Shown piece by piece: positions 29,494-54,141 of a stretch of 64,000 nt of DNA. The notes beneath the pieces were generated by a model. The model did not search any database, was not told the origin of the DNA, and was given only the letters and a program-made list of their open reading frames with translations. The position numbers were made by a program, and so were the translations under genes. Origin of the DNA: a virus; IMG/VR virus record IMGVR_UViG_3300031234_000818; one strand, given 5' to 3'. Within the stretch, counting starts at the first letter, position 1. Each line of letters opens with the position of its first letter.

Positions 29494-33984
<4,491 letters not shown>

Positions 33985-40331: not shown

Positions 40332-40505
40332 TCATCGAGCGATCCGCGCTTCGACAACCTTGCAGCCCTCTTCGACCAACATCTTGATCACGGCGGCGCG
40401 CGGGATCTTGACGCCGGTCTGCTTCACCAGGGCCACGCGGATCTTCTCCAGGCGGGCTTTGGTGCCTTTTTCGAACCGGATGCTGAGGATGTCGGTCGCC
40501 GCCAT
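40332..40505 (-). CDS. Ribbon-helix-helix-like DNA-binding protein (57 aa)
   Basis: ILSIRFEKGTKARLEKIR...IPRAAVIKMLVEEG (beta-alpha-alpha pattern). Confidence 0.7.
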   Translation of the reverse strand: MAATDILSIRFEKGTKARLEKIRVALVKQTGVKIPRAAVIKMLVEEGCKVVEARIAR

Positions 40506-40592
40506 CGCTACATGGTAGCTCATAGGGCTTCGATGGGTAAGCTTGTGGCTGGATCGCCAGAACCGTGCCAGAATGGGCTGGGTACAGCGCAC

Positions 40593-40666
40593 GTTCCTTG
40601 AAAACCCCCGCGTCGTGGTCCGCTCCTGACGATAGCGCCCACGCTCCCCTCGCTTGCGAGGATGCC
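40593..40666 (+). repeat. Leader-like 74-nt segment, duplicated at 52575-52649
   Basis: gttccttgaaaac..ccgcgtcgtggtccgctcc...cctcgcttgcgaggatgcc in both places. Confidence 0.9.
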
Positions 40667-40734
40667 ACGCTACCTTGCTACCGCGCGTGCGTGGATGGGC
40701 CGCAGTTCGACCGGAGTCACGATCTGAAGGACAG

Positions 40735-41228
40735 GTCGTGCCCGCGCGTGCGCGGATGTGCCGCAGAGGCAGTAGCGTCGGCTGGATGGGCACACGTCAA
40801 GCCCGCGCGTGCGCGGATGTGCCGTCTCTCGCGCAGTCGCTTCTTCCGCTCCGGCAGTCGAAACCGTGCGAGCGCGGATGAACCGAAGCGAGCCACCAGA
40901 GGACGTCTGAGACATCCGGGCTCATTTGCCAGGAAAGATGAGTAGTTTCGAAGTGTCGTGCCCGCGCGTGCGCGGATGGACCGGCCCCTCACGACCGACC
41001 CCCACGGTTCTTCGGGTCGTGCCCGCGCGTGCGCGGATGGACCGGCAGCGCCCAACGGTCGCGAGGTTACGTGTCGCGTCGTGCCCGCGCGTGCGCGGAT
41101 GGACCGTCGGGCCGATTCGCCAGGTCATCGATCCCGTTGTCGTGCCCGCGCGTGCGCGGATGGACCGTCCAGACTGTCGTTCCTGTCAGACCTGTTGAGC
41201 GTCGTGCCCGCGCGTGCGCGGATGACCG
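40735..41228 (+). CRISPR. Well-formed type I-E-like CRISPR array block
   Basis: 29-nt GTCGTGCCCGCGCGTGCGCGGATGGACCG exact at 40955, 41016, 41078 and 41139, variants at 40735, 40796, 40857 and 41201; unique 32-33-nt spacers (one 69-nt gap). Confidence 0.92.
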
Positions 41229-41298
41229 CGCGGGTACCTGGATACCACGGGCTCCTCCCTTTGAGGCGCCGGGCCGCCTAGGATGCTACGGTCGTGGT

Positions 41299-41481
41299 GT
41301 GGGAGACATCGTCGAGTCGTTGCCCGAGGGCTCGGACGTTGCCGTGATCGTCGCGGCTGGTGACGAAGCCTTCGCCGCCTTCGACATCGACGAACAACAA
41401 GTGGCAGAGCTTCTTGCCTCGATCGAAGAGGCGGATTGCGGCGAGTTTGTTTCCCTGGATGATGTGCTGAAGTCGAGGTGA
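41299..41481 (+). CDS. Small antitoxin-like protein inside the array
   Basis: C-terminus LASIEEADCGEFVSLDDVLK resembles addiction-module antitoxins. Confidence 0.45.
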   Translation: MGDIVESLPEGSDVAVIVAAGDEAFAAFDIDEQQVAELLASIEEADCGEFVSLDDVLKSR

Positions 41482-44020
41482 CGACGCGCTCGCGGTCGTT
41501 AGTCGTTCCGCGTGCGCGCGATGGATCGTCGAGCAACTGGAGGATGAGCGTCGCCTCGTGCTCCTGCCTCGCACGCGCGGATGAACCACCGCGCAGGCGG
41601 CTCTCCATGTCGGGGTCGGTGTCGTTCCCGCGCACGGCGCGGATGTTTCGGGCCCATTGGGGAAGAGCGCGCGATGGCGTCGTGCCCGCGCGTGCGCGGA
41701 TGGACCGGCGTACCTCGTGCACGAGCGCGTGAACCGGATCGTCGTGCCCGCGCGTGCGCGGATGGACCGAGGAGGTCACGTGGGAGGAACTCCCCGACGA
41801 CGTCGTGCCCGCGCGTACGCGGATGGCCATGTCCATGGTGCCTTGCCGTATGGGCCCAGCCACACGTCGTTCCCGCGCTCGCGCGGATGGGCCGTACCCT
41901 CGTGATTGGCGTGCGACGAACACGTGGCCCCGCGCTTGCGCGGATGAACCGTTCCAGACGAAGGTGCTCGAACACCTTGGGCTCATCGGTCGTCGGTGTC
42001 CCGCGCACGCGCGGATGAGCCTGACTTTCCGCTGATCGTTGGGACGGACAGACACACGCCATTCCGCGCGAGCGCGGATGAACCGAGCCAGCCTGCCTTC
42101 GTACGAACGCATCGGTCTCGACGTTGCTCCCGCGCGTGCGCGGATGAGCCGAACTCACATCGGGCGGCGACGAGTGAACAACGGCCGCGCGTGCGCGGGT
42201 CGGTCGGCGTTCCCGCGCGAGCGCGGATGGATCGGACCACCCGAACGACATCGACGGGCAGCTGTGTAGGACGCCGCGCGAGTGTGGATGGGCCTTGCCG
42301 GTGGTCGTTGTCGCTCAGGACGATGGTCGTCGCTCCCGCGCGTGCGCGGATGGGCCGCAACAGTGAAACTGAGCGTGCGGCGTTGGCTCGCGTCGTTCCA
42401 GCGCGAGCGCGGATGAACCGTCGTCGCGGAGATGCGCGATGGTCACGGCGATGTTACTGCCGCGCGAGTGCGGATGGGACTAGGCCACCTCGCCAAGGCT
42501 CCGCACTTCAACATGGCCTCTCCCGCGTCCTCGTGGATGAACCGCCAAGCTCGCCTCGATGCGCGATGATGTCGATGAAGTGGCTCCCCGCGCCAGCGCG
42601 GATGAGCCGCGCGGGATGGACATCGCCCATCGTGTGAGTAGCGTGTCTCCCGCGCCAAGCGCGGATGAGCCAAACGCCGATCGCGAGATGGTCGAGCTTC
42701 TTCACGCGCGAGCGCGGATGCGCCGCTTCGACTATGCGACTATGCGACCGAGGGTGCCTGCATTGCCTCCTCTTCCGCGCGTACGCGCGGATGAACCGGC
42801 CTCCGGACCGATGGGGCCACGTGCTCCAGAGAGCCCTCGCTCCGCGCGGATGGACCGGACGATGTGGTCTACACGCCGCCACGCTATCGTCACCGCGCTT
42901 CGCGCGGATAGACCGGCTCACGAGGTGCCTGGCGGATTCAAGTCGCTCGTCACCACCGCGCTTACGCGGATGAACCGATGCTCTGCCACCTCTGGGCCGA
43001 GACGCGATCCTTCGTCTCGTCGGCACTGATACCCAAAGCGACCATCGCGTCGAAGCGTCGAACACGTGACGTGACGACGTGACGGTGGTGGCTCAGTGGC
43101 GTGGCCGCGCGCGCGCGGATGGACCGACGACCTTGTCAGGAAGCCAGCAGCCGATACCGTCTCTCCCGCGTGCGCGTGGATGTACCGAAGTAGCCGAAGT
43201 CGACGAGTTCGGTCTCGACGCCGTTCGTGTCTACCGCGCCCGTGCGGATGAACCGTACCGCCGCATGTTCTTCGCGGCCCAAGCCTACAAGCCGCCTAGC
43301 TCCCGCGCTCGCGCGGATGTGTCGCGCGGCGCGTTCAGCGGGCGGACCGGATACTGGTCACCTGTCGTGGCCGCGCTCCGCGCGGATGGATCGTGGGCAG
43401 GGCGAGTTATCTGGCCGGACTCACGTGACCACCGCCCGCGTCAGCGTGGATGCGCCCTCGGGGATCTAGCAGGTCGTGCACAACGGTCGTGCCGCGCGCG
43501 CAGCGCGGATGGACCGCCGAGTACCCACCAGGCCGTACGATCCGCCGTTCCGCGGCACGGCCCACCTTCAGCGCCACCGATTGGGAGCGTTTTTTCCGCG
43601 CTCCGCGCGGATGGACCGTACCGCGTGTTGAGGTAGTTGCTGATGGATGGACCGTCCGACAGGACGTGCAGGCAGTTGTGTGACGGTCTCCGCGCGTCGC
43701 GCGGATGAACCAGTGAACCGGTGGAGCGTTCTCAGTGCCCGTCGCCTATGGTCTGCGTTGCCGGCCGGCGTCCCCGTGCGCGCGCGGACTACCTTGGTGG
43801 AGCAGCTGTTTTGAGCCCCATGCCCCCATGCCCATGACGACGTTTGGTCGCACGCCTCGTACCTGCGCCCGAGCGCGCGGATGGACCGAACAGCGGGCAG
43901 AAGACCGCGTCGCAGCTCGTGTCACTCCCGCGCGTGCGCGGATGGTCCGTGGTTCCGACGTCCCAGGCGGCTTGATCCAGTCCCTCCCCGCGCGAGCGCG
44001 GATGATGACCGTGTGGGCGA

Positions 44021-44353
44021 TCAGGTCCATGGGTACCTTGGTCGCCGCCGCGCGGTGCGCGGCCCCTCGGGCAGCCGGAGCACGGCGCGGTCGAAGTCGC
44101 GGGTCGCACTCCGGTACGCGAGCAGGCCGCGGTCGAACTCTTCGTCGGACGCGAGCCATGCGGCCTCGCGTGGCACGCGCTCGGCGGCGACGTCGGCTGA
44201 GCGAAGCTCGGTGAGCGCGGCGCGAACGTCCGGTGGCATTCGCTCGATGACCTCTCCTGGCTGTCCCTGGTAGCGTCGGTAGCGGCGAGACGAGACGAGC
44301 GACGGGTGTCCGCCGCGGACGATGGTGTAGTCGAGAGCGCTCGCTGGAGTCAT
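44021..44353 (-). CDS. Hypothetical protein inside the array
   Basis: 110-aa ORF filling a repeat-free gap. Confidence 0.55.
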   Translation of the reverse strand: MTPASALDYTIVRGGHPSLVSSRRYRRYQGQPGEVIERMPPDVRAALTELRSADVAAERVPREAAWLASDEEFDRGLLAYRSATRDFDRAVLRLPEGPRTARRRPRYPWT

Positions 44354-45504
44354 GGGTCGTAGCCTACCACTGGATCGGCTTTACGCCGCACCGCTTCCAG
44401 GCCGCGTCGACAGTCTCCGCGCGGGCGCGGATAAGCCAAAGCGACCCAAGGTGGTGTGAGCGACGCATGACCGTCATCCCCGCGCGCGAGCGCGGATGAA
44501 CCGCTGACGAAGTCCGCCCATGTTCGAGGTAGGTCATTGCTCCCGCGTGCGCGCGGATGGGCCGACAGGAGTTCACGTGGTGCCACGTTCAGGCGTTCAG
44601 GCTGTTCACTCCCGCGCGAGCGCGGATGGATCTCCGGCCGTGTTGACCGCTGGCCACGTGTCGTCGTCACGAGTAGCTCTTGGCTGCCAGCGTAGTGCGC
44701 GGATGGCTCACGGTACATGGCGCCCACATGCGGGGCATGCGGCATGCGGAGTCGGAATGTGCCAGCGCGATTGCGCGGATGGACCTCGGTACCTCGACGG
44801 ATGGCAGGCATTCAAGAGGGTAACCGCGCGCCTGCGCGGATGATCCGTCGGCGTGTGACGCCTCGTCGGTAAGGCCGAACCTCCACCCAGCGCGAGCGCG
44901 GATGTGCCAAACGGCTGGACGGTGTTGATGCGGAGGATGAGGATGACCGCCATGCCCGCGCAAGCGCGGATGGTTCGTGGTCGCCAGTCGAGCGAGTAGC
45001 GATGTGATGGACCGAAGCGCAAGACGCCAAGGCCCAAGTCGCCAGTCGCCGTACATGCGTGCGGATGAGCCGCGGAATGGATTCGGCCCGATCATGGGAG
45101 CGAGCCGCGTCGTTGCGCGGATGAACCGGCCGGAGAGGTGCTTACCGAGAGCGAGTACGTCGTCTCCGCGCAAGCGCGGATGGAGCACGTTTGCGCAGCC
45201 GGTCAGACTCTCGATTGCTGTTCGTGGGTCCGCGCGTAGCGCGGATGAACCGTCGCCACAACTGCGGGCGGGTGTAGCCAAGCGGTCCGCGTGTGCCGCG
45301 GATGCGCCTTGCCCAAACTCGTGGGCCACGATGCCCAAGACTCCGCGCCACGCGCGGATGGTTTACGCGTGCGTCGGTGAGGGCTTACGTTACGCCGGTG
45401 GTCGACCGCGCGTGCGCGGAGGTGCGGGTATCGCAGTACTGCTTGATACTGGCCGGCGATCAACGTTTCGCTGACGCCATGATGGCGGTAGGCTAGAAGC
45501 AGCC

Positions 45505-46497
45505 ATGGGATGCAAGGTCTTGCTGCTACACTTGGACGGGAAGCTGCCCAATGTGGCCCTGATGCGCATCGCGGCCCACCATCGCGCGCTGGGCGACGAG
45601 GTGGAGCTGCGGCACGCGCCCACGGTGGCCTCGGTGGAGCCGGAGATCCTCGACAGGCACGATCGGGTCTACGCCTCCTGCATCTTCGAGCGGACGCGCC
45701 CCGTTGCGGAGCGAGTGCTGCAGGCCCATCCAGGCGCCATGGTCGGCGGTACGGGTTTTGACGTTGTTCGAGGCTTGGAAGACGTGGGCATCGAGACCGA
45801 CGTGCAGGACTACGCGATCTACCCGCGCTTCCGGCAGTCGATCGGCTTCACGCAGCGTGGCTGCAGGCTGAAGTGCTCCTTCTGTGTCGTACCGCGCAAG
45901 GAGGGGCGCGTGCGAGGTGTCCAGACCGTCGAGCAGCTCTGGCGCGGGGCGCCGTGGCCTCGCGAGCTTCTTCTGCTGGACAACGACTTCTTCGGCCAGG
46001 ACGACTGGCGCGAGCGCGTGCGTGAGATGCGCGACGGCGGCTTCAAGGTGTGCTTCTCGCAAGGGATCAACGCGCGGGCGTTGACGGAGGAGACGGCGGA
46101 GGCGATCGGCGCGCTCGACTACCGCGACGATTCGATGAAGACCAAGCGGATCTACACGGCCTGGGACAACAAGAAGGACGAAGCGCGACTTTTCCGTGGG
46201 CTCGACCTCCTTGTGAAGGCTGGCGTCAAGCCGGACCACATCATGGTCTACATCCTGGTCGGGTACTGGGCGGGTGAGACGGCCGAGGACCGCGACTACA
46301 GGCGGCAGCGACTGAGGGACTTCGGGGCGCGTCCGTACCCCATGCCCTTCGTGCGGACGCAGGAGCTGGTGTCCTTCCAGCGATGGGTCATTGGCGCCTA
46401 CGACAAGAGCGTCCCCTGGGCGGACTGGTGTGCGGCCCGCGGTTCGCCGCGGAACCTGACTGTGGGCTCGCAGCAGCGGTCACTTCCTCTCTACTGA
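45505..46497 (+). CDS. Radical SAM (Fe-S) protein inside the array
   Basis: RGCRLKCSFCVV (CX3CX2C); N-terminal LDGKLPNVALMRIAAHH; LLDNDFF. Confidence 0.9.
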   Translation: MGCKVLLLHLDGKLPNVALMRIAAHHRALGDEVELRHAPTVASVEPEILDRHDRVYASCIFERTRPVAERVLQAHPGAMVGGTGFDVVRGLEDVGIETDVQDYAIYPRFRQSIGFTQRGCRLKCSFCVVPRKEGRVRGVQTVEQLWRGAPWPRELLLLDNDFFGQDDWRERVREMRDGGFKVCFSQGINARALTEETAEAIGALDYRDDSMKTKRIYTAWDNKKDEARLFRGLDLLVKAGVKPDHIMVYILVGYWAGETAEDRDYRRQRLRDFGARPYPMPFVRTQELVSFQRWVIGAYDKSVPWADWCAARGSPRNLTVGSQQRSLPLY

Positions 46498-47061
46498 GCA
46501 CCCGCGTACGCGCGGATGGACTCGACGTGAGCAAGCGCATCGCTCCACGCAAGCGAGGATGCCTCGCACCTTCACGCCGTCGCAACCGTGATCGCGTGAT
46601 CGCTGCGACCGTGTAAGCCACCGTGCATGCGCGGATGACCCGTCGGTCGCTCAGCTGCGGCTGGCCGCTACACGTGAGGGCCGCCGCGCGTCGCGCGGAT
46701 GGCCCACCTGGTTTTAGTTACGCGTCTCCGAACTCGTCGCTCGAACACGCGCACCCGCGCTCTGCGCGGATGACCCGTGAGTAGGCGGCCCATTATTCCC
46801 AGGGATGCTTGGACACCGCGCCATCGCGCGGATGCCTCGTTCGATGACCGCGCGACATTCGAGAGTCCCGTGTTACTGCCGCGTGCGCGCGGATGGCCCG
46901 TAGTTTGGCTGCATGGTCGCGTCAAAGACGAGTGCGCTGCCGCGCCAAGCGCGGAGGAACGAGTGCTGGCACGCATTCGCAGCGCGGTCTGCTAGATTGC
47001 GTTCGGTGAGCCTACGGAGACTGCAGGCGATGGTCCAAGGCTGGCTGGGAGGCAGATTGAC

Positions 47062-47238
47062 ATGTCCGAGCATGACTGGATGGTCGTCCTGAACGCGAAG
47101 AGCAAGGTCAACGCGACCAACGAAGCCCGAAAACGGCGCGAGCGTGGCGAAAATTCCAGGGCCCGAAGCATAGACGGCTACTGGGTCGTGGAAGTCTGGA
47201 CGGACGCCTACGGGCCGGACCATCTAATGCGCGGATGA
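47062..47238 (+). CDS. 58-aa hypothetical protein whose stop codon is supplied by a repeat
   Basis: gggagg RBS, MSEHDWMVVLNAKSK...; stop is the TGA of gcggaTGAac. Confidence 0.55.
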   Translation: MSEHDWMVVLNAKSKVNATNEARKRRERGENSRARSIDGYWVVEVWTDAYGPDHLMRG

Positions 47239-47246
47239 ACGCGCTC

Positions 47247-47277
47247 TGTTTGACCGACGGTCATACAATGGTAGGAT
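47247..47277 (+). promoter_or_regulatory. Promoter with TGAC-N5-GTCA palindrome (copy 2)
   Basis: tgtTTGACCgacggtcatacaatggTAGGAT; ATG at 47284. Confidence 0.6.
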
Positions 47278-47283
47278 CCGCCC

Positions 47284-47679
47284 ATGGCGATGGACTTCCA
47301 GTCGTTTCTCACGCGTGTGGTCCAAGACGGCATCGCTTCGGCGAAGACGGACTCGCAGTTGCAGTCGCATCCCAAGCGGTTGCGGGGGTCCATCAGCGGC
47401 TTCGAGTCCTGCCTGGGCAAGAATGCCGCGCAGCTGTGGGAACTCCTTGCGGACGCGAACCGCAAGGCATGGGACGTTCGTGTCGAGCAGGAAGACGACA
47501 AGGACAATACGTACGACATCGAGGACTACTGGGAAGCTCGGTACGTAGCAATCCAGGTTGAGTGGGTGTGCAACACCGTGTCGGCCGCGATGGCGAGCCA
47601 AGGCCACACGATCGTGCCACCGACGGCGCGCGGGTACATGAACGCCGCCCGTATCCTCGGTGTCGAAGGCGCAAACTAG
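47284..47679 (+). CDS. Hypothetical protein inside the array
   Basis: 131 aa; a repeat begins immediately after the TAG. Confidence 0.7.
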   Translation: MAMDFQSFLTRVVQDGIASAKTDSQLQSHPKRLRGSISGFESCLGKNAAQLWELLADANRKAWDVRVEQEDDKDNTYDIEDYWEARYVAIQVEWVCNTVSAAMASQGHTIVPPTARGYMNAARILGVEGAN

Positions 47680-48115
47680 GCGGTCCCGCGCGAGCGCGGA
47701 TGACCCGCGCGTGTGCGAGTTCGACGTCTTCTCCACTCAGCGCAGCACCAAGCGCGTAAGCGCGGATGAACCCGACACGTTCGACGGGTTACGCGTGGTG
47801 TGTCTCCGCGCGTTCGCGCGGATGAATCGGTCGACGGGATCGGCGCATGGTTCGATCCAACGCTTCCGCGCCAGCGCGGATGTACCGGCCAGGCGTCGCA
47901 CCGTAGGACCGTCCCTGTTCAGCGGCCGCGTGTGCGCGGATGGTCCTTGGGTCAAGCGGCCGGCAGCCGCGGAGGGCCTCAGGTAGCCCGCGCTACGCGC
48001 GGATGAACCTTGAACTCGGCCTATGAGGTGGAAGTCGGGCCGTACTCGCCGCGCTACGCGTGGATGAAACGTAAGCCCATGAGCGCGAGCATCGAGACAT
48101 GGTACGCTCGGGACC

Positions 48116-48337
48116 ATGCCGAAGGACGTTTTGTACGGCCCGATCCAGGCGCGTGGCTACGACGACATCACGCTCGTCGTCGAGCACGAGGCCTTCTTTC
48201 CCGACGGGACTTCGATGAAGATCCCGGCTGGAACGAAGCTCGTCATGACGTGCTTGGCTGGCGGTGGCGGTCCGACCGTCGAGTACCGGGGCGGTTGCGT
48301 CGAGAGAGCGGATGTGAAGCGGTCACCCGCTGCGTAG
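48116..48337 (+). CDS. Hypothetical protein inside the array
   Basis: 73 aa; a repeat begins immediately after the TAG. Confidence 0.6.
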   Translation: MPKDVLYGPIQARGYDDITLVVEHEAFFPDGTSMKIPAGTKLVMTCLAGGGGPTVEYRGGCVERADVKRSPAA

Positions 48338-48540
48338 GTTCCGCGCGTTCGCGTGGATGGACCGTTCGATAGAGTCACGGTGGTGCGACCCACCTTCCGC
48401 GCATCGCGCGGATGGACTGGTTTCAGCCCGCACGGCTACCAAGATCATCGGCGATGTCCCGTGCGATGCGCGGATGTCCCTTACTCAGGCATCCTCGGTG
48501 CGGCGTAGCGAGTTCGCCCGCGCTTGGCGCGGAGGCAGTC

Positions 48541-49170
48541 TCAGGCCGAGATGGTCGATGCGAAGCGCTGCAACGCGGCCTTGGCCTCACTGACGTTGTT
48601 GCGGCCCCAGAGTGGCTCGATGCGTGAGATCGGGCTGCCGTCGTTCACGCGCAGGTGGACGATGTGCCCGTCGAGAATCGCGTCCTTGAACTTCTCGACC
48701 CATTCGGTCTCGAAGTAGTTACGCATGTCGTTCGCCATGTCCGAGAGATCGCACTCGGACTCGTTGCCGTTCGTCCACACGGCTTGCACCATGGCGATGA
48801 TCGGGCCTGGCTTCGGCCCGCGACCCGTCTTGTAGTCCCTCGACTTGTCGACGCGCTCGTAGACCACGAAGGCCTTGAGGACGCGACACGTGCCTGACTC
48901 GCACTCGATGGGGTACTCGGCCGAGTCTTTTCTCGACCGATAGAGGTCGACGTACATGCCCGGCGTGAGCGTTCGGTACTGCGTCATGAGCGCGGCCAGG
49001 CATTCCTTCGAGCAGGCCATAGTGTTGGCCTGGTAGCCATGCACCCACACCCAGTCGTCCGGTGGAGGTCCGCCCTTGTGTTTGCGTCCTACGCGGTCGC
49101 AATGGGCGCATAGGCAGTCGACCATCGGGCCGAGATTCGTGTGCTTGGTGCAATCATGTGTGCAGTTCAT
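48541..49170 (-). CDS. Hypothetical protein with Cys-rich N-terminus
   Basis: Last gene of a leftward operon. Confidence 0.65.
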   Translation of the reverse strand: MNCTHDCTKHTNLGPMVDCLCAHCDRVGRKHKGGPPPDDWVWVHGYQANTMACSKECLAALMTQYRTLTPGMYVDLYRSRKDSAEYPIECESGTCRVLKAFVVYERVDKSRDYKTGRGPKPGPIIAMVQAVWTNGNESECDLSDMANDMRNYFETEWVEKFKDAILDGHIVHLRVNDGSPISRIEPLWGRNNVSEAKAALQRFASTISA

Positions 49171-49204
49171 GGTGTTCCTTCAAGCTGGGAGGTTGTCGCC
49201 ACCT

Positions 49205-50134
49205 TCACGCGGGCAGCGTCGAGCGAAACTCACCGAACGCGTTGACGGCGGTTCCCAGTAGCTCGCCCCGCAGGCACAGCTCGTCGCAGAGCATCATCCG
49301 GCGGTAGCCGACGTCGTGGAGCCATTGAAGCTCCAGGAAGTCGGCGCAGGACGGGACGGGCCCTTCGACGATGGAGAGGAGGAGGCGCGAGGCGACGCAG
49401 GCCTTGGGGTCCTTGTCGACGATGAGCCGGAGGGCCTGGGCGATCCGGTGGGGCCGGTCGATCTCGACGTAAAGGTCTCCGCGCGCGGCGACGAGGACGA
49501 GGTTGTCCCTCTTCTTGAACGTGTCGGCCACGTACGAGAGGCCACGCATGCTCTCGATCTTGAGCCAGACCTCGCTGTCTTTGCCTGCGAGTTCCAGGAA
49601 CTGGTCGATGTCGCGCTCCTCCTCGACGTAGGAGAGAAACCACTGCTTGAAGCCGGCCTTGCGGCACTTCTCGATCTTGAGCTTCTCCTCGGGGATGAAG
49701 AGATCGCCCAGGATGCGGAGGTTGGGGTCCCGGAGGTAGAGCGACTCACCGGCCTTGACCTTGTACCGGGGGCCGCCCTGGAAGACGAGGCGCTGGCCGC
49801 CTTCCTCCAGGTGGTCGAGCATGGCGTGGTCCGCCCCGCCCTTGAAGATGACGACGCTGGGCGTGGCCACCTCGACGGCGTGGTTCAGGCGGAGATCGAG
49901 GTGGTCGTCGTTCGGGATGACCTCGATGACGCGCGGCTGTCGGGCCTTCACGTCGAAGTAGAGGTCGACCTTCTGGATCTTCTTCTGCTCCTCGATGACC
50001 TTCAGCTCGTGGTCCAGCTCGGGATTGCTCATCATTGCGCTGTTCAGGCGGATGCCGCTCAAGCGGTCGTCCTGCACGAATCGCTCGTAGTGAGGGAAGC
50101 TTGGCCAGAGGGTGGCCAGGAGATCGACGCCCAC
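49205..50134 (-). CDS. Pyruvate-kinase-like barrel protein (no C-terminal regulatory domain)
   Basis: ATLWP, IRLNS, FDVK, LSYVE, LKIE..GL, ARGDLYVEI, ASRLL.S..PVPSCAD, MMLCDE align with PK motifs. Confidence 0.75.
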   Translation of the reverse strand: MGVDLLATLWPSFPHYERFVQDDRLSGIRLNSAMMSNPELDHELKVIEEQKKIQKVDLYFDVKARQPRVIEVIPNDDHLDLRLNHAVEVATPSVVIFKGGADHAMLDHLEEGGQRLVFQGGPRYKVKAGESLYLRDPNLRILGDLFIPEEKLKIEKCRKAGFKQWFLSYVEEERDIDQFLELAGKDSEVWLKIESMRGLSYVADTFKKRDNLVLVAARGDLYVEIDRPHRIAQALRLIVDKDPKACVASRLLLSIVEGPVPSCADFLELQWLHDVGYRRMMLCDELCLRGELLGTAVNAFGEFRSTLPA

Positions 50135-50137
50135 GGC

Positions 50138-51085
50138 CTACTTCCCCAGCAGGCCCTTGGCGGGCTTGGCATCGGGCAGGTGCATGACGGATTTGCCCTT
50201 GGCGGACTTGTGGGGCGGGAGCGTGCCGTGGACGGTCTTCAGGGAGGTGTAGACGGTGTCGACCTGGCCTGGGTCCTGGCGGCCTTCCAGCTCCTTGCGG
50301 AAGTAGTCGATGCGGTTGGTCTCCTTGGCGAGGATGCCGAAGATGACGTCGACGACGCGCTCGGGCGCCTGGAGGGCGACGACGTGGTCTTCGCCCAGTA
50401 GGCCAACCCACTGACGGTGGATGGGGCCGTCGTCCACGGCGTACGCCTTGCGCACGACGTAGACGGAGTACTTGCGTCGCAGCTCCTCGAAGATGTCGGT
50501 CGTGTCGATCCTGGACGTGGTGTTGACGTGGTTGGCGACGGCGTGAGCTTTCTCGACGTAGGGGTGCAGGCCTTCGTCGCCGATGAAGACGATGATGGGC
50601 TTGATGGCTTTGGGCATGGAGACGTTGCGGGCGTAGTAGAGCGCGGCCAGCTCGTAGCTTTCGCACTGGTCGCTGCCGCCGCCGCGCTCGATGACGAGCG
50701 CCTTGAGGTGCTCGGCGAGCTTGGTTCCCCTGTCGAAGGTACGGACCTGGAGCGGGTACTTGTCGCCCTGCGTGGCGTCGCCCACGGCGGCGAAGCTGAT
50801 CTCCATCTCCTCGCCCAGGTACTGTTTTCCCTCGATGTCGAGGTAGGGCAACTTCGAGAAGATGACGGCGGGCCACTCGCCCATCGAGCCGGTGACGTCG
50901 CAGACGACGACCAGGGGCGAAGGGCTGCTGGTGGACAGGGCCTCGGGCACGAGGTCCGCGGCCTTCACGCCTGTGGTCTTGGCGTCGCTGTAGCTACGCC
51001 CGGCGTGGGCGTCGTAGCTCGTGCGGGCCGCGGTGAAGTCGTGGCCCTTCCATTCGCCCGGATCGTAGTCAGACGTTTCGGCCAT
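50138..51085 (-). CDS. vWA-domain protein (copy 1)
   Basis: MIDAS-like DVTGSMG; GGG.D..ESYE; FIGDE. Confidence 0.8.
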   Translation of the reverse strand: MAETSDYDPGEWKGHDFTAARTSYDAHAGRSYSDAKTTGVKAADLVPEALSTSSPSPLVVVCDVTGSMGEWPAVIFSKLPYLDIEGKQYLGEEMEISFAAVGDATQGDKYPLQVRTFDRGTKLAEHLKALVIERGGGSDQCESYELAALYYARNVSMPKAIKPIIVFIGDEGLHPYVEKAHAVANHVNTTSRIDTTDIFEELRRKYSVYVVRKAYAVDDGPIHRQWVGLLGEDHVVALQAPERVVDVIFGILAKETNRIDYFRKELEGRQDPGQVDTVYTSLKTVHGTLPPHKSAKGKSVMHLPDAKPAKGLLGK

Positions 51086-51383
51086 GGGCGTCTCCCTCGG
51101 TCATGGGTGCGTACGGAACCTCCCATGGTCTTGGCTGGTCGTCGAAGTATTGGTCCTTGATGGGGAACCCGTTCTCCAGATCCCGCATGGCGTCGAGCGG
51201 CACCCATAGGATCTGACCGTCGGAAGTCTCGCAGCGGTAGCGCATGCTCTCGACGTGATTGTGGTAGCCCTCCCGCTGGTTGACCTCGACCTTGAACCGC
51301 AGGGTCCATCCTTCACGCTTCTTGAGGTAGTGCTCGTTCTCGGAGTCCGGTAGGACAACGAGGTACACGCTGCGAGTGTGCAT
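51069..51383 (-). CDS. Hypothetical protein
   Basis: Operon-packed; ggaga RBS. Confidence 0.6.
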   Translation of the reverse strand: MHTRSVYLVVLPDSENEHYLKKREGWTLRFKVEVNQREGYHNHVESMRYRCETSDGQILWVPLDAMRDLENGFPIKDQYFDDQPRPWEVPYAPMTEGDAHGRNV

Positions 51384-51397
51384 GAGGCGAGTCTCCT

Positions 51398-52399
51398 TCA
51401 GAGCCCTGGGATGGGCTTCATGCCGGTCCAGGTGCGTCCGAATGCTTTCTGTCTGATGTCGCGGAACATGTTGAAGAGGTCACCTCGTGGTCGCGCGAGG
51501 ATGTCGTGAGCGATGAGGCTCTTGACGAAGTCGCTGATGGGACCAGGGACGCTTGCCGGGACCTTGAGCTGTTCGACGGCCTTCATGTTGCCGCTGAGCG
51601 CGTAGATCATGAGCATGCCCAGGCTGTAGAAGTCGCTTTCTGGCAGGAGGGTCTTGCCGGCGAGCTGCTCGGGCGGTGCGAAGAATGGCGTGTAGCCCAT
51701 GGCTTTGGCCTTGGGGGCGGGCTTGACCATCGACAGGCCGAAGTCGACGAGCACGACCGCGTGGATGTCGGGTTGGACGATGATGTTCTGAGGCTTGATG
51801 TCGCCGTGGACGACGCCGTGGTGGTGCAGGTAGAGAAGGGCGTTGAGGATGCGGTCGACGATCCAGGCGACGGACTCGGGCTCGATCTTGCCGACCTTCT
51901 CGACCAGCTGCTCCAGCGTGAGCCCGGGGATGTAGCTCATGATGAGCGCCAGGCTTCCGTCTTCCAGCCGGTGCATGTCGCGCATGGCTGGGAGCGCGTG
52001 GTGGCGAAGATCCCAGATGGCCTTCGCCTCGGCGATGAGGACGGCGTCGTGGGCGGCTGAGACCTGCGAGCAGTGCTTGATGCACACGGGCTCGTCGTTG
52101 ATAGTCTGCTCGCCCTTGTACGTCGATCCGAAGCCTCCCTCGGCGATGAGGTCGAGCACGCGGTAGTTGCCCAGGATGGTACCTGCGGTTTTCGAGCGGG
52201 CGGCGAGATCGTACTTCTCGCGCTCCGCCGGGCTGGAGAGCACCTTGTAGGCCTTCGTGATGGCGTCGAAGGCGTCCTTGTCGCCGCCCTTGTCGGGGTG
52301 GTGGACGCCTGCGAGGGCATGGTACGCGGCCCTGATGACGACCTGGCTGGCCTGCGGGCTCACTTCGAGGATGCGGTAGTGCGGAAGCACGAGGGCCAT
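51398..52399 (-). CDS. J-domain fused to a Hanks-type Ser/Thr protein kinase
   Basis: HYRILEV...HHPDKGGD (HPD); GGFGSTY, CIK, HGDIKPQN, DFG, APPE. Confidence 0.9.
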   Translation of the reverse strand: MALVLPHYRILEVSPQASQVVIRAAYHALAGVHHPDKGGDKDAFDAITKAYKVLSSPAEREKYDLAARSKTAGTILGNYRVLDLIAEGGFGSTYKGEQTINDEPVCIKHCSQVSAAHDAVLIAEAKAIWDLRHHALPAMRDMHRLEDGSLALIMSYIPGLTLEQLVEKVGKIEPESVAWIVDRILNALLYLHHHGVVHGDIKPQNIIVQPDIHAVVLVDFGLSMVKPAPKAKAMGYTPFFAPPEQLAGKTLLPESDFYSLGMLMIYALSGNMKAVEQLKVPASVPGPISDFVKSLIAHDILARPRGDLFNMFRDIRQKAFGRTWTGMKPIPGL

Positions 52400-52420
52400 G
52401 TCGTCGTTGTCTCGGTGACC

Positions 52421-52450
52421 GTTATACCGCGTGTAAAACATGGTGGTCAA
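52421..52450 (-). promoter_or_regulatory. Promoter TTGACC-N18-TATAAC for the kinase operon
   Basis: -10 at 52421-52426, -35 at 52445-52450. Confidence 0.55.
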
Positions 52451-52624
52451 GCGACGCGTCCCCGAGAAAGCTGCGGCTGTTCATAGGGTCATCCTGCGCC
52501 GAGACAAGCGCGAGAGGCGCCGTTGGCCTGGGTACGCGACCGCGTGTAGAGTGTGGGCCCCGCGCGTTGCGGGTGTTCCTTGAAAACTCCCGCGTCGTGG
52601 TCCGCTCCGTGACGACAGCGGCCA

Positions 52625-53285
52625 CGTCCACCTCGCTTGCGAGGATGCCCCAACGTCGACGATTACCGCGCTGTTCGGTGATGGTGACCGCGCCGTGCGC
52701 GGATAGGCCAAACCTCGGCTCGTGAGCCATCGGTATGATGGTCGTGGTGCCCGCGCGTGCGCGGATGTTCCTGCACATTGCCAGGCGGCGCAGGAGTTCA
52801 TGCGTGGTCCCCAGCGCCTTCGCGCGGATGAGCCGAGGTTGGCGCTCCAGGCCGTGACGACCGTGGTCCGGCGCACGTTCACGCCCGAGCGATCCTGCGC
52901 GAGCGCGGATGGAGCGAAGACGCCAGCCGAGATGAGGGCGGAACAGGTCGTCGTCCGCGCGCGCGCGGATGCGCCGTACCCGCTTGTGCCGCCGACGTTG
53001 TTCACGTTCCGCGCCGCGCGTTGCGCGGATGGTCCGGTGCTGGACCTGACACGTGGAAGGCCCATGAGAGAGCCCGCGCTTGGCGCGGATGGCTCCGACT
53101 TTGGCGGCCACTAGGAGGTGCACATCGACTGCCCGTGCTCCACGTCTTGCGTGGATGATCCGAACCGGTGCAGAGCGTACGGCTGGCCGTGGTCGCGCCG
53201 CGCCATGCGCGGATGGTCCGATGTACGGGCTGGAGATGGTGGGGCGTTCGGACGTTATGGCCCGCGCGTTGCGCGGACAGGGTGT
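52625..53285 (+). CRISPR. Second degenerate array (~11 repeats) behind the duplicated leader
   Basis: Same core repeat, e.g. gtgcccgcgcgtgcgcggatgttcc at ~52747; ~60-70-nt period. Confidence 0.75.
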
Positions 53286-53289
53286 CTGG

Positions 53290-54141
53290 TCACGCGAAAA
53301 CGCGGACGCACTCCCGCATGGTGTTGTCGTGGATCTCCAGCACCTTGGGGATGCTTCCGTCTCGTTCGACCTGGTAGCCGCCTGCGAGGTTCCACGCGAC
53401 GGGGACCTTGCTTCCGGCCAGCGTCTCGAAGACGATGGCGTCACGCTGGCGTAGCTGGTCGGTCGTGAGCCAGCCACCTTGTGGATCGTCCACGTGTGGA
53501 TCGGCCCCCGCCTGGTAGAGGACGACGTCGCAGCTCTTCATGGAGGCGAGCACTTCGGGCAGTCGTTCGAAGAATGCAGGCGCGTGACCCGGATGAAAGA
53601 AGTGGCGCCCTCCAGTGAAATGGCAGACCCAGTCTTCCGCGCCACGCGCTCGGATGATGTGGTCGGTGCCGTTGCCGTAGTGCATATCGATGTCGAGGAT
53701 GCCGATGCGGTCGGCACCGTCGTGCTTCAGCGCGCAGGCGGTGACCATCAGGCCGTTGAAGGTGCAGAAGCCCTGGGCCTTGGCAAACTCCGCGTGGTGA
53801 AACCCGGAGCAAGGAGCTGCCGCCGCGCCACCGGACGAGAGGACGTGCCTGGCGGCGGAGAGCATCGCGCCCGATGTGTGCAGGAGCGAACGCGCGATGG
53901 TGAGCGACATGTTGCCGAACCCGTTGGGCTTCCTGCACTCCAGGATGTCCATCACGAACTGCCGGTCATGGGCCCTGGCGATGTCGTCGACGGTGACGGG
54001 CGTGGGCTCGATGAGGGCGACGGGGAACTGCTTCTGCCACGAGGCGACAACCTGTGCAGGCTTTGCGGCGCTTGGCGAGTAGGACTCGGAGTCCGCAACC
54101 ATCTTGGGCGTGTAGAAGACGGGAATGGTGGCTGCAGGCAT
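53290..54141 (-). CDS. Zn-dependent histone-deacetylase-family protein
   Basis: GFHHA...GFCTFN, LDIDMHYGNGT, AGADPH.DDP.G, GGY. Confidence 0.92.
   Translation of the reverse strand: MPAATIPVFYTPKMVADSESYSPSAAKPAQVVASWQKQFPVALIEPTPVTVDDIARAHDRQFVMDILECRKPNGFGNMSLTIARSLLHTSGAMLSAARHVLSSGGAAAAPCSGFHHAEFAKAQGFCTFNGLMVTACALKHDGADRIGILDIDMHYGNGTDHIIRARGAEDWVCHFTGGRHFFHPGHAPAFFERLPEVLASMKSCDVVLYQAGADPHVDDPQGGWLTTDQLRQRDAIVFETLAGSKVPVAWNLAGGYQVERDGSIPKVLEIHDNTMRECVRVFA

Follow-up and report, generated by a model that had tools for sequence, protein, structure and literature searches.

In type I-E CRISPR systems, Cas6e recognises both sides of the repeat stem and cuts at the hairpin/G21|A22 junction, leaving a 21-nucleotide (nt) 3′ hairpin, to which the enzyme stays bound, and a 5′ handle of 8 nt; cleavage is expected to yield a CRISPR RNA (crRNA) of 61 nt (PMC5965380). 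Within the E. coli Cascade complex, pockets of Cas5e take handle bases -8, -7 and -6, with a specific contact to U-7, and C-2 is read by Arg108; bases -5, -4 and -3 are stacked as a triplet and -1 kinks, and base-specific bonds to these positions are not reported (PMC5965380). Mimics of such repeats are also found in phages. The stem-loop of Racr, a solitary repeat unit, is essential for Cas6 binding, and type I-E examples have been validated (PMC10651486), and the RNAs of viral Cracr arrays are processed by host I-E Cas proteins, compete with host crRNAs and redirect Cascade (bioRxiv 10.1101/2024.10.29.618823). Here we describe a related locus in the viral record IMGVR_UViG_3300031234_000818, of which a stretch of 64,000 nt (the window) was analysed: a phage-borne, cas-less, type I-E-like CRISPR array complex on the + strand, most of whose repeats have diverged from one another. 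The pattern of that divergence shows strong purifying selection on the repeat core, and we consider it likely that the units would still give rise to RNAs that Cascade can load.

The 29-nt consensus repeat, GTCGTGCCCGCGCGTGCGCGGATGGACCG, contains a stem (positions 8-12/17-21) whose 3′ end lies at position 21, followed by an 8-nt handle, ATGGACCG, of the AT(G/A)NACCG type. An earlier note on this DNA, made from its letters alone, had called this segment a 3′ handle; 8 nt do follow the stem, but they correspond to the crRNA 5′ handle, which is the 3′ part of the repeat. In I-E arrays, repeats of ~29 nt alternate with unique spacers of ~32-33 nt; here the young units have spacers of that length, and the period has its mode at 61-62 nt over all units, with a range of 53-77. 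Only six copies are perfect (starting at 40955, 41016, 41078, 41139, 41679 and 41741, spaced 61-62 nt apart), and the curated union of three detectors holds 91 units, 85 of them non-perfect. The first complex (40674-48540) accounts for 81 units and a second array (52682-53284) for 9-10; the earlier note had placed the end of the array at 48540, but a second leader and array follow at 52577-53284. Three rounds of iterated nhmmer together with ungapped scanning returned ~80 + strand copies, within 40679-48478 or 52749-53218, and no copy outside these two clusters in the 64 kb; the only minus-strand nhmmer matches were two weak ones (E 0.2-0.9) that overlie + strand units. Tandem Repeats Finder recovered the perfect runs alone and is unsuited to extracting the units. 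The local DNA is G+C-rich (~65% G+C). The repeat-bearing segments are as follows.

40955-41228, + strand: run of five 29-nt repeats, each perfect or nearly so, separated by spacers of 32-33 nt.
41500-44011, + strand: sub-array of ~38 units; those at 41679 and 41741 are perfect, the others degenerate.
44409-45427, + strand: sub-array of ~16 degenerate units, the last of which (A22 at 45420) carries AGG instead of ATG.
46495-46962, + strand: sub-array of ~8 degenerate units that ends in a unit with AGG (46955).
47679-48071, + strand: sub-array of 7 degenerate units.
48334-48540, + strand: the four units that close the first complex, with AGG and a lost handle in the terminal one (48533).
52682-53284, + strand: second array, made up of 9-10 degenerate units; behind its last stem (53262-53276) stands an unrelated octamer, ACAGGGTG, the handle being lost.

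Divergence among these units is sharply non-uniform. Over the 85 non-perfect units, per-position entropy is low in the stem arms (0.17-0.36 bits), at G16 (0.25 bits) and at positions 22-24 (0.29 bits), intermediate at C13 (0.70 bits) and at positions 27-28 (0.9 bits), and high in the 5′ flank (1.5 bits), at loop positions 14-15 (~1.65 bits) and at positions 25-26 (1.77 bits). The conserved block thus comprises positions 8-13 and 16-24 plus C27-C28, and within it G18 and G20 are invariant in 85 of 85 units. Loop positions 14-15 vary even though both flanking arms are conserved: there are 50 distinct loop sequences of 3-7 nt, and changes in loop length mostly extend the helix, bringing it nearer to the usual I-E geometry, with 37 copies forming a 6-bp helix closed by a loop of mostly 3-4 nt. 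Older units have therefore lost nearly all sequence memory at unconstrained positions, while the hairpin 8-13/16-21, the G21|A22 junction, A22-T23-G24 and C27-C28 have been kept. The suggestion of the earlier note that divergence is non-random and spares the hairpin and the flank of the cleavage site is borne out (stem identity 0.88-0.93 versus 0.59 for the flank; ATG 0.87-0.92), as is its statement that the loop and both ends vary (5′ flank 0.26-0.49; positions 25, 26 and 29 at 0.40-0.58), with the qualification that C27-C28, near the 3′ end, are kept.

Copies recognised by their core will tend to show a conserved core, a caveat that the earlier note itself raised, and nhmmer models likewise give the core the most weight. 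If the contrast were an artefact of this kind, the array could be a dead one in neutral decay. We regard this as extremely improbable, as the contrast survives detection by the handle alone, by the stem alone and by period. A detector restricted to ATGGACCG with at most one mismatch gave 43 array hits, versus ~2.5 expected by chance from the rest of the window, and identity in the 37 non-perfect copies so found reached 0.88 and 0.93 in the 5′ and 3′ stem arms, compared with 0.59 for the 5′ flank and 0.69 for the loop. These copies carry 35 stem mismatches, versus 89.6 ± 5.9 if the mismatches of each copy were spread evenly, a count as low as which was reached in none of 20,000 simulations. Since the contrast persists when only G/C sites are considered (35 versus 75.6 expected), base composition is not the cause of stem conservation. 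Conversely, a detector restricted to the stem (CCGCG-N3-7-CGCGG, at most one mismatch) gave 90 hits versus ~9 by chance. Identity in these copies was 0.92, 0.87 and 0.87 at A22, T23 and G24 (~0.94-1.0 after correction for chance hits), 0.74 and 0.82 at C27 and C28, but 0.40 at both G25 and A26, 0.58 at G29 and 0.26-0.49 in the 5′ flank. The ATG accumulated 29 mismatches versus 111 expected, again a count below any in the 20,000 simulations, and when the comparison is limited to A/T sites, A22 and T23 have held up much better than T2, T5 and A26.

Extraction by period, which the earlier note had proposed as a check, leads to the same result. The array segments total 6093 bases, or ~100 slots at 61 bases per unit, and ~91 of these hold recognisable units; stems decaying at the level of the flanks (~0.45 per site) would have left fewer than one slot in 100 passing the stem detector. 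Hidden copies with a decayed core thus cannot account for the contrast, and the equal decay of stem, loop and flanks that would have spoken against constraint is not seen. Three partial remnants lie in the larger gaps, two consisting of a handle only and one of a stem only. In the latter (42185-42198) the stem is perfect and the next repeat begins directly, handle and spacer having been deleted; the former (43647-43654 and 45007-45014) have an intact ATGGACCG with no stem upstream.

The bases conserved in the array appear, by comparison with the E. coli complex, to be those of the Cas6e hairpin and cleavage site and of the Cas5e handle contacts. In the handle, positions -8, -7 and -6 (A22-G24) and -3/-2 (C27 and C28) are kept, and -5, -4 and -1 are free. 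The consensus is identical to the E. coli K-12 I-E repeat (GAGTTCCCCGCGCCAGCGGGGATAAACCG) at 20 of 29 positions, and seven of the nine positions that differ fall in the variable class of the array (Fisher p = 0.014). An identical handle, ATGGACCG, terminates the I-E repeat of Thermus thermophilus. The distribution of substitutions supports selection for processing and loading well, in keeping with one half of the interpretation offered in the earlier note. Its other half, that handles were adaptively diversified, is not demonstrated: handle variation is confined to positions without a reported specific contact and looks like drift.

A further distinction is seen in the eight terminal units of sub-arrays, which have no spacer behind them. 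Their stems are as well conserved as those of internal units (0.95 versus 0.95), but their otherwise conserved handle bases stand at 0.70 versus 0.93 (Fisher p = 3.6e-5), and all three units with a T23>G change (45420, 46955 and 48533) are terminal. This pattern points to a handle that is required only where it heads a crRNA. Compared with Racr, in which the stem is the essential part, the array conserves not only the stem but also handle positions 22-24 and 27-28 in all but the terminal units; conservation of the handle where a spacer follows points to crRNA-like loading rather than to capture of Cas6 alone.

The changes that the stem does tolerate point to the strand that would be transcribed. 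Among stem substitutions there are 17 C>T and 4 G>A (p = 0.007), with no such excess in the flanks; as an excess of C>T preserves G·U pairs only if the RNA corresponds to the + strand, it is the signature of a + strand RNA. By our tally, 17 of 36 non-consensus pair cells still pair, versus 17-33% expected for random single changes. In minimum free energy folding, the helix ends at G21 in 64 of 91 units versus 14% of shuffles; fold energies are barely below or above those of shuffles in such G+C-rich DNA, so that energy alone is uninformative. Micro open reading frames (ORFs) starting at the conserved ATG were also considered and rejected, their median length of 31 codons being no longer than that from other ATGs (38).

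Hairpins in a + strand RNA need not be there for Cas proteins, and the ORFs that interrupt the array bear on this point. Five lie on the + strand and one on the - strand.

41299-41481, + strand: 60-residue ORF in a spacer position, no family match; the next unit begins 18 nt past its stop.
44021-44353, - strand: 110-residue ORF interrupting the array, no family match.
45505-46497, + strand: radical-SAM-like phage gene of 330 residues (Pfam PF04055, weak; phrog_9298, 2.7e-49).
47062-47238, + strand: 58-residue ORF ending inside a repeat remnant, whose GCGCGGATGA core supplies the stop.
47284-47679, + strand: 131-residue ORF ending 1 nt into the next unit.
48116-48337, + strand: 73-residue ORF whose stop overlaps the next unit.

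The stop codon of the radical-SAM-like gene likewise overlaps the start of the next unit, and the distances from stop to unit for the five + strand ORFs (ending at 41481, 46497, 47238, 47679 and 48337) are +18, -3, -25, -1 and -2 nt. In every case a unit thus begins no more than 18 nt past the stop or reaches back over at most the last 25 nt of the ORF, as would be expected if the hairpins were Cas-independent RNA or DNA elements, such as 3′-end or stability elements for the embedded genes, barriers that keep Rho off a long untranslated transcript, or binding sites for a phage protein. There are no cas genes nearby, and many neighbouring ORFs belong to no known family, leaving room for a dedicated binding protein. 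Such elements would nevertheless be expected to covary freely, whereas here the sequence itself is fixed, most strictly at G18 and G20. Nor would they explain why A22-T23-G24 and C27-C28, which lie outside the helix, are conserved, or why the loss of handle bases is restricted to units that no spacer follows. Intrinsic terminators, in particular, are contradicted by the lack of any T-run behind the stems, and the terminator listing contains no unit except one remnant. We therefore regard an origin of the hairpins independent of Cas proteins as unlikely. A scan of 13 kb for sigma-70-like sites gave a single one, which does not lie at a unit, and no Rfam family, including the CRISPR-DR models, matched 40400-53400 at E <= 0.1.

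The embedded ORFs themselves have relatives that lack the array. The radical-SAM-like gene has 245 relatives in IMG/VR, and the repeat was present in none of the 80 relative loci inspected; probably, therefore, either the gene was inserted into the array or the array grew around it. Homologues of the 131-residue protein (50-66% identity) occur in gene-dense phage contigs without repeats. No family match was found for the small in-array ORFs.

We estimate from the sequences that free sites have accumulated ~0.9-1 substitution per site per unit, versus ~0.05 in the core, which would amount to a 15-20-fold constraint. Compared in pairs, the units agree at 0.39 of the 12 free positions, versus ~0.28 for random G+C-rich sequence. 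The degenerate units have a median longest common run of 9 nt, and only 0.4% of pairs share 20 nt or more. The window stretch is present in 24 peat metagenome runs, where its degenerate part is letter-identical (0-1 differences per contig) in contigs of several other peat samples; joints and alternative inserts of 30-39 nt occur mostly at the perfect or near-perfect, leader-proximal repeats. Since the contigs from other peat samples are near-identical, population polymorphism gives no selection signal. Degenerated CreTA repeats have been found experimentally to resist recombination (PMC9458426), and divergence of flanks and loops probably makes this long array resistant to repeat-repeat deletion as well. 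Avoidance of recombinational loss, which the earlier note had put forward as an alternative cause of the diversification, is consistent with the short common runs and the stability of the degenerate part, but is not proven by them.

In a rival reading, the core would be homogenised by concerted evolution: short-tract conversion or unequal exchange, seeded by a G+C-rich palindrome, could maintain it without any selection on RNA. The core is the longest stretch common to the units, perfect donor copies are present in the array, and repeat-repeat rearrangements do occur in the population. Conversion tracts, however, would not skip loop positions 14-15 between two conserved arms, nor stop at position 24 and resume at 27-28, and they predict neither the asymmetry of C>T over G>A nor the loss of terminal handles. 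At variable positions, moreover, units do not resemble their neighbours more than they resemble distant units (0.407 versus 0.389, p = 0.08). Overall, we find homogenisation in this manner quite improbable.

The repeat recurs, with the ~125-nt leader, in at least three arrays of a phage-like contig from a JGI metagenome, Ga0302325_10006022 (loci L087-L089). Its 60 units, 19 of them perfect, come in 33 variants and are much younger than those of the window; variant sites cluster at positions 1-2, 5-7 and 25-29, with few at 8-24. The first spacer of the perfect run at 40955-41228 (40984-41015) is identical to L089 2002-2033 over 32 of 32 bases and is the sole spacer common to both contigs. A translated comparison (tblastx) of this contig with the window gave low-scoring noise only, its ORFs are mostly without known family, and no cas genes were found among the ten that were scanned. 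In this contig (L088 2729-2939 and 4461-4735) several repeat-spacer units have undergone segmental duplication, and identical variants occur in runs (four of GTCGTGTCC... and five of ...GATGAACCG), which is what an array growing at a mutated first repeat would produce.

The relative also bears on a different origin of the variants, in which they were acquired from many host or phage arrays and the profile reflects a family-wide I-E constraint acting elsewhere. The conserved positions do coincide with those common to the E. coli repeat, and the variant types GTCGCTCC... and ...GATGAACCG are found in both phage contigs. Other arrays are evidently present in the samples: in runs X4 and X5, the word depth of bin 41623-42063, which contains the perfect repeats at 41679 and 41741, is several-fold above that of most bins, and together with the alternative inserts there this indicates that arrays with the same repeat, of a host or of phage strains, occur in the same samples. 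Nearly all units differ from their neighbours, however, and without block structure they would have to have been captured one by one; moreover, the related contig is the only other source of variants found in IMG/VR, GTDB and the JGI metagenome scan. Such a mosaic has, in our view, little to recommend it. In IMG/VR, no contig contained the perfect repeat, and the degenerate core pattern gave five single chance hits. The search of GTDB for the repeat core returned one chance match, inside a coding gene of a Polyangiales metagenome-assembled genome, and a sample of 401 genomes from the same phylum held no array of the core; GenBank phages gave no megablast match to 40600-48600. The spacers of the degenerate region had no match within the loci compared.

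Leaders lie upstream of the first repeats, as in I-E arrays, and one of them is split.

40595-40662, + strand: leader part A, which aligns in five leaders and ends in the hairpin CCTCGC-TT-GCGAGG (40649-40662).
40674-40885, + strand: four degenerate repeat-spacer units within the split leader, missing in a population variant.
40899-40954, + strand: leader part B, immediately upstream of the first perfect repeat, recognised by its identity to the related contig.
52577-52645, + strand: leader part A a second time, its hairpin included.

Part A shares 95.6% identity with L087 12352-12418 and 88% with its second copy in the window, and part B shares 92% with L087 12414-12501, where the two parts are contiguous. 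The ~125-nt leader is common to the three leaders of the relative; the window has part A twice and part B once. A contig from run X7 joins 40662 directly to 40909, skipping the four units, so the insertion that splits the leader is polymorphic in the population. The earlier note had read CCTCGC-TT-GCGAGG as a leader-side repeat copy with compensatory changes. The hairpin is present, but it is a fixed leader element conserved in five places, not a diverged first repeat; in the related contig it is followed by ACG, not ATG. A third unit of the type found in the leaders, GCGAGG-ATGCC, lies near 46547-46568. The element may nonetheless be an ancient derivative of the repeat.

Taken together, we propose that the array would be transcribed on the + strand from its conserved leaders, that a host Cas6e would cleave each unit after G21 and remain on the hairpin, and that Cas5e would capture the downstream 8-nt handle to give Cascade-loadable RNAs. 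Such RNAs may serve as guides, may regulate as crRNA-like RNAs do, or may compete for Cas proteins. Classical guides are made less likely by the irregular lengths of the units and the lack of targets found, and a pure Racr-type sponge for Cas6e by the conserved handles. In one tentative and rather doubtful extension, every unit would still be a substrate of Cas6e, which stays bound to its product (PMC5965380), and an RNA that Cas5e could load: a recombination-proof, multivalent RNA of ~90 units could soak up or reprogramme dozens of Cas6e or Cascade assemblies, and the same cuts could free the embedded genes as hairpin-capped messenger RNAs. No RNA data set was listed with the whole array. A 151-nt metatranscriptome contig (run X25) is identical to 40674-40824 at a depth of 2, which, as the ends of a contig are not those of an RNA and DNA carry-over is possible, is no evidence either way.

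Several observations weigh against Cascade loading as the function under selection. The adjacent operon expected of a I-E array (cas3, cse1, cse2, cas7, cas5, cas6e, cas1 and cas2) is missing from the window, and no Cas family of NCBIfam or Pfam was found among the ~60 window ORFs scanned. No host with the repeat was found in GTDB genomes, and the cognate Cas6e is thus hypothetical; nor did IMG/VR contain a protospacer for three recent spacers when every sixth base was left free. Only 38 of 72 short periods measure 60-63 nt, and many units would accordingly give crRNAs of non-canonical length. The loss of terminal handles could reflect insertion events rather than relaxed selection. Finally, true compensatory doubles are rare: the array has two, CCGTAC.ATGC.GTGCGG (G12A with C17T; 3′ end just before 45065, in the sub-array 44409-45427) and CCACGT.CTT.GCGTGG (G10A with C19T; ending just before 53155, in the second array). 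Support for the stem comes from sequence conservation and tolerance of wobble pairs, not from classical covariation.

The surroundings of the array resemble those of a large phage, with NrdJ, Nampt, NUDIX, NrtR, J-domain kinases and an HNH endonuclease, and include many ORFs without known family. The B12-dependent ribonucleotide reductase NrdJ (29494-33984; 1496 residues) carries an intein, with matches to the intein C-terminal splicing region and to models of intein-containing GyrA and DnaB. Just past the second array, a gene of the histone deacetylase family (53290-54141, - strand) adjoins the NrtR-Nampt-NUDIX cluster.

The array can be regarded as a natural mutational scan of the I-E repeat, with ~85 independent variants whose constraints agree with the contacts of Cas6e and Cas5e. 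That ~6 kb of array was carried through ~1 substitution per free site with its core protected is hard to explain without a host I-E system. If the proposed reading is correct, RNA-based manipulation of CRISPR by phages, as in Racr and Cracr, would extend from one to three units to the scale of an array, possibly as a polymeric counter-defence coupled to gene expression, and the pattern of divergence would provide a natural design rule for recombination-stable multiplex arrays.

Among described systems, the locus resembles canonical I-E arrays, with which it shares the 29-nt repeat, the 32-33-nt spacers of its young units, the hairpin end at position 21 and the AT(G/A)NACCG handle. It differs from them in that ~85 of 91 units are non-identical, whereas canonical arrays are homogeneous except for the last repeat, and in a stem of 6 bp rather than 5 bp with a tetraloop; the phage context, the absence of cas genes from the window, the genes in spacer positions and the several leaders, one of them split, are also unlike the canonical arrangement. 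The entropy profile, in which degeneration spares the nucleotides expected to bind Cas6 and Cas5, is also that of the psiR repeats of CreTA and crRNA-like regulatory modules (PMC9458426). Those are host modules of one or two repeats beside cas genes that guard a toxin, compared with ~90 phage units here and no toxin or target identified, and the repeats of haloarchaeal I-B CreTA lack a conserved hairpin, which is conserved in this array (PMC9458426). Viral Cracr arrays are likewise phage-encoded, cas-less and repeat-like, but have two to three spacers that partially match host cas or toxin promoters, as opposed to the ~90 units here (bioRxiv 10.1101/2024.10.29.618823). Racr units are phage-borne repeat mimics as well; each is a single, spacerless repeat behind a promoter with a handle that tolerates change (PMC10651486), an arrangement different from the ~90 units with spacers seen here. 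A survey of CRISPR arrays has shown that the positions of repeat mutations are non-uniform and subtype-specific (PMC12839519), but the mutations it describes are sparse and in homogeneous cellular arrays, compared with near saturation at free positions and a base-by-base map in the present case. Non-uniform mutation positions, degenerate repeats that spare Cas contacts, and cas-less mimics and mini-arrays in phages have thus all been described before; what is unusual here is a phage array of ~90 units near saturation, the base-by-base map of constraint that it provides, and the genes that lie between its units.

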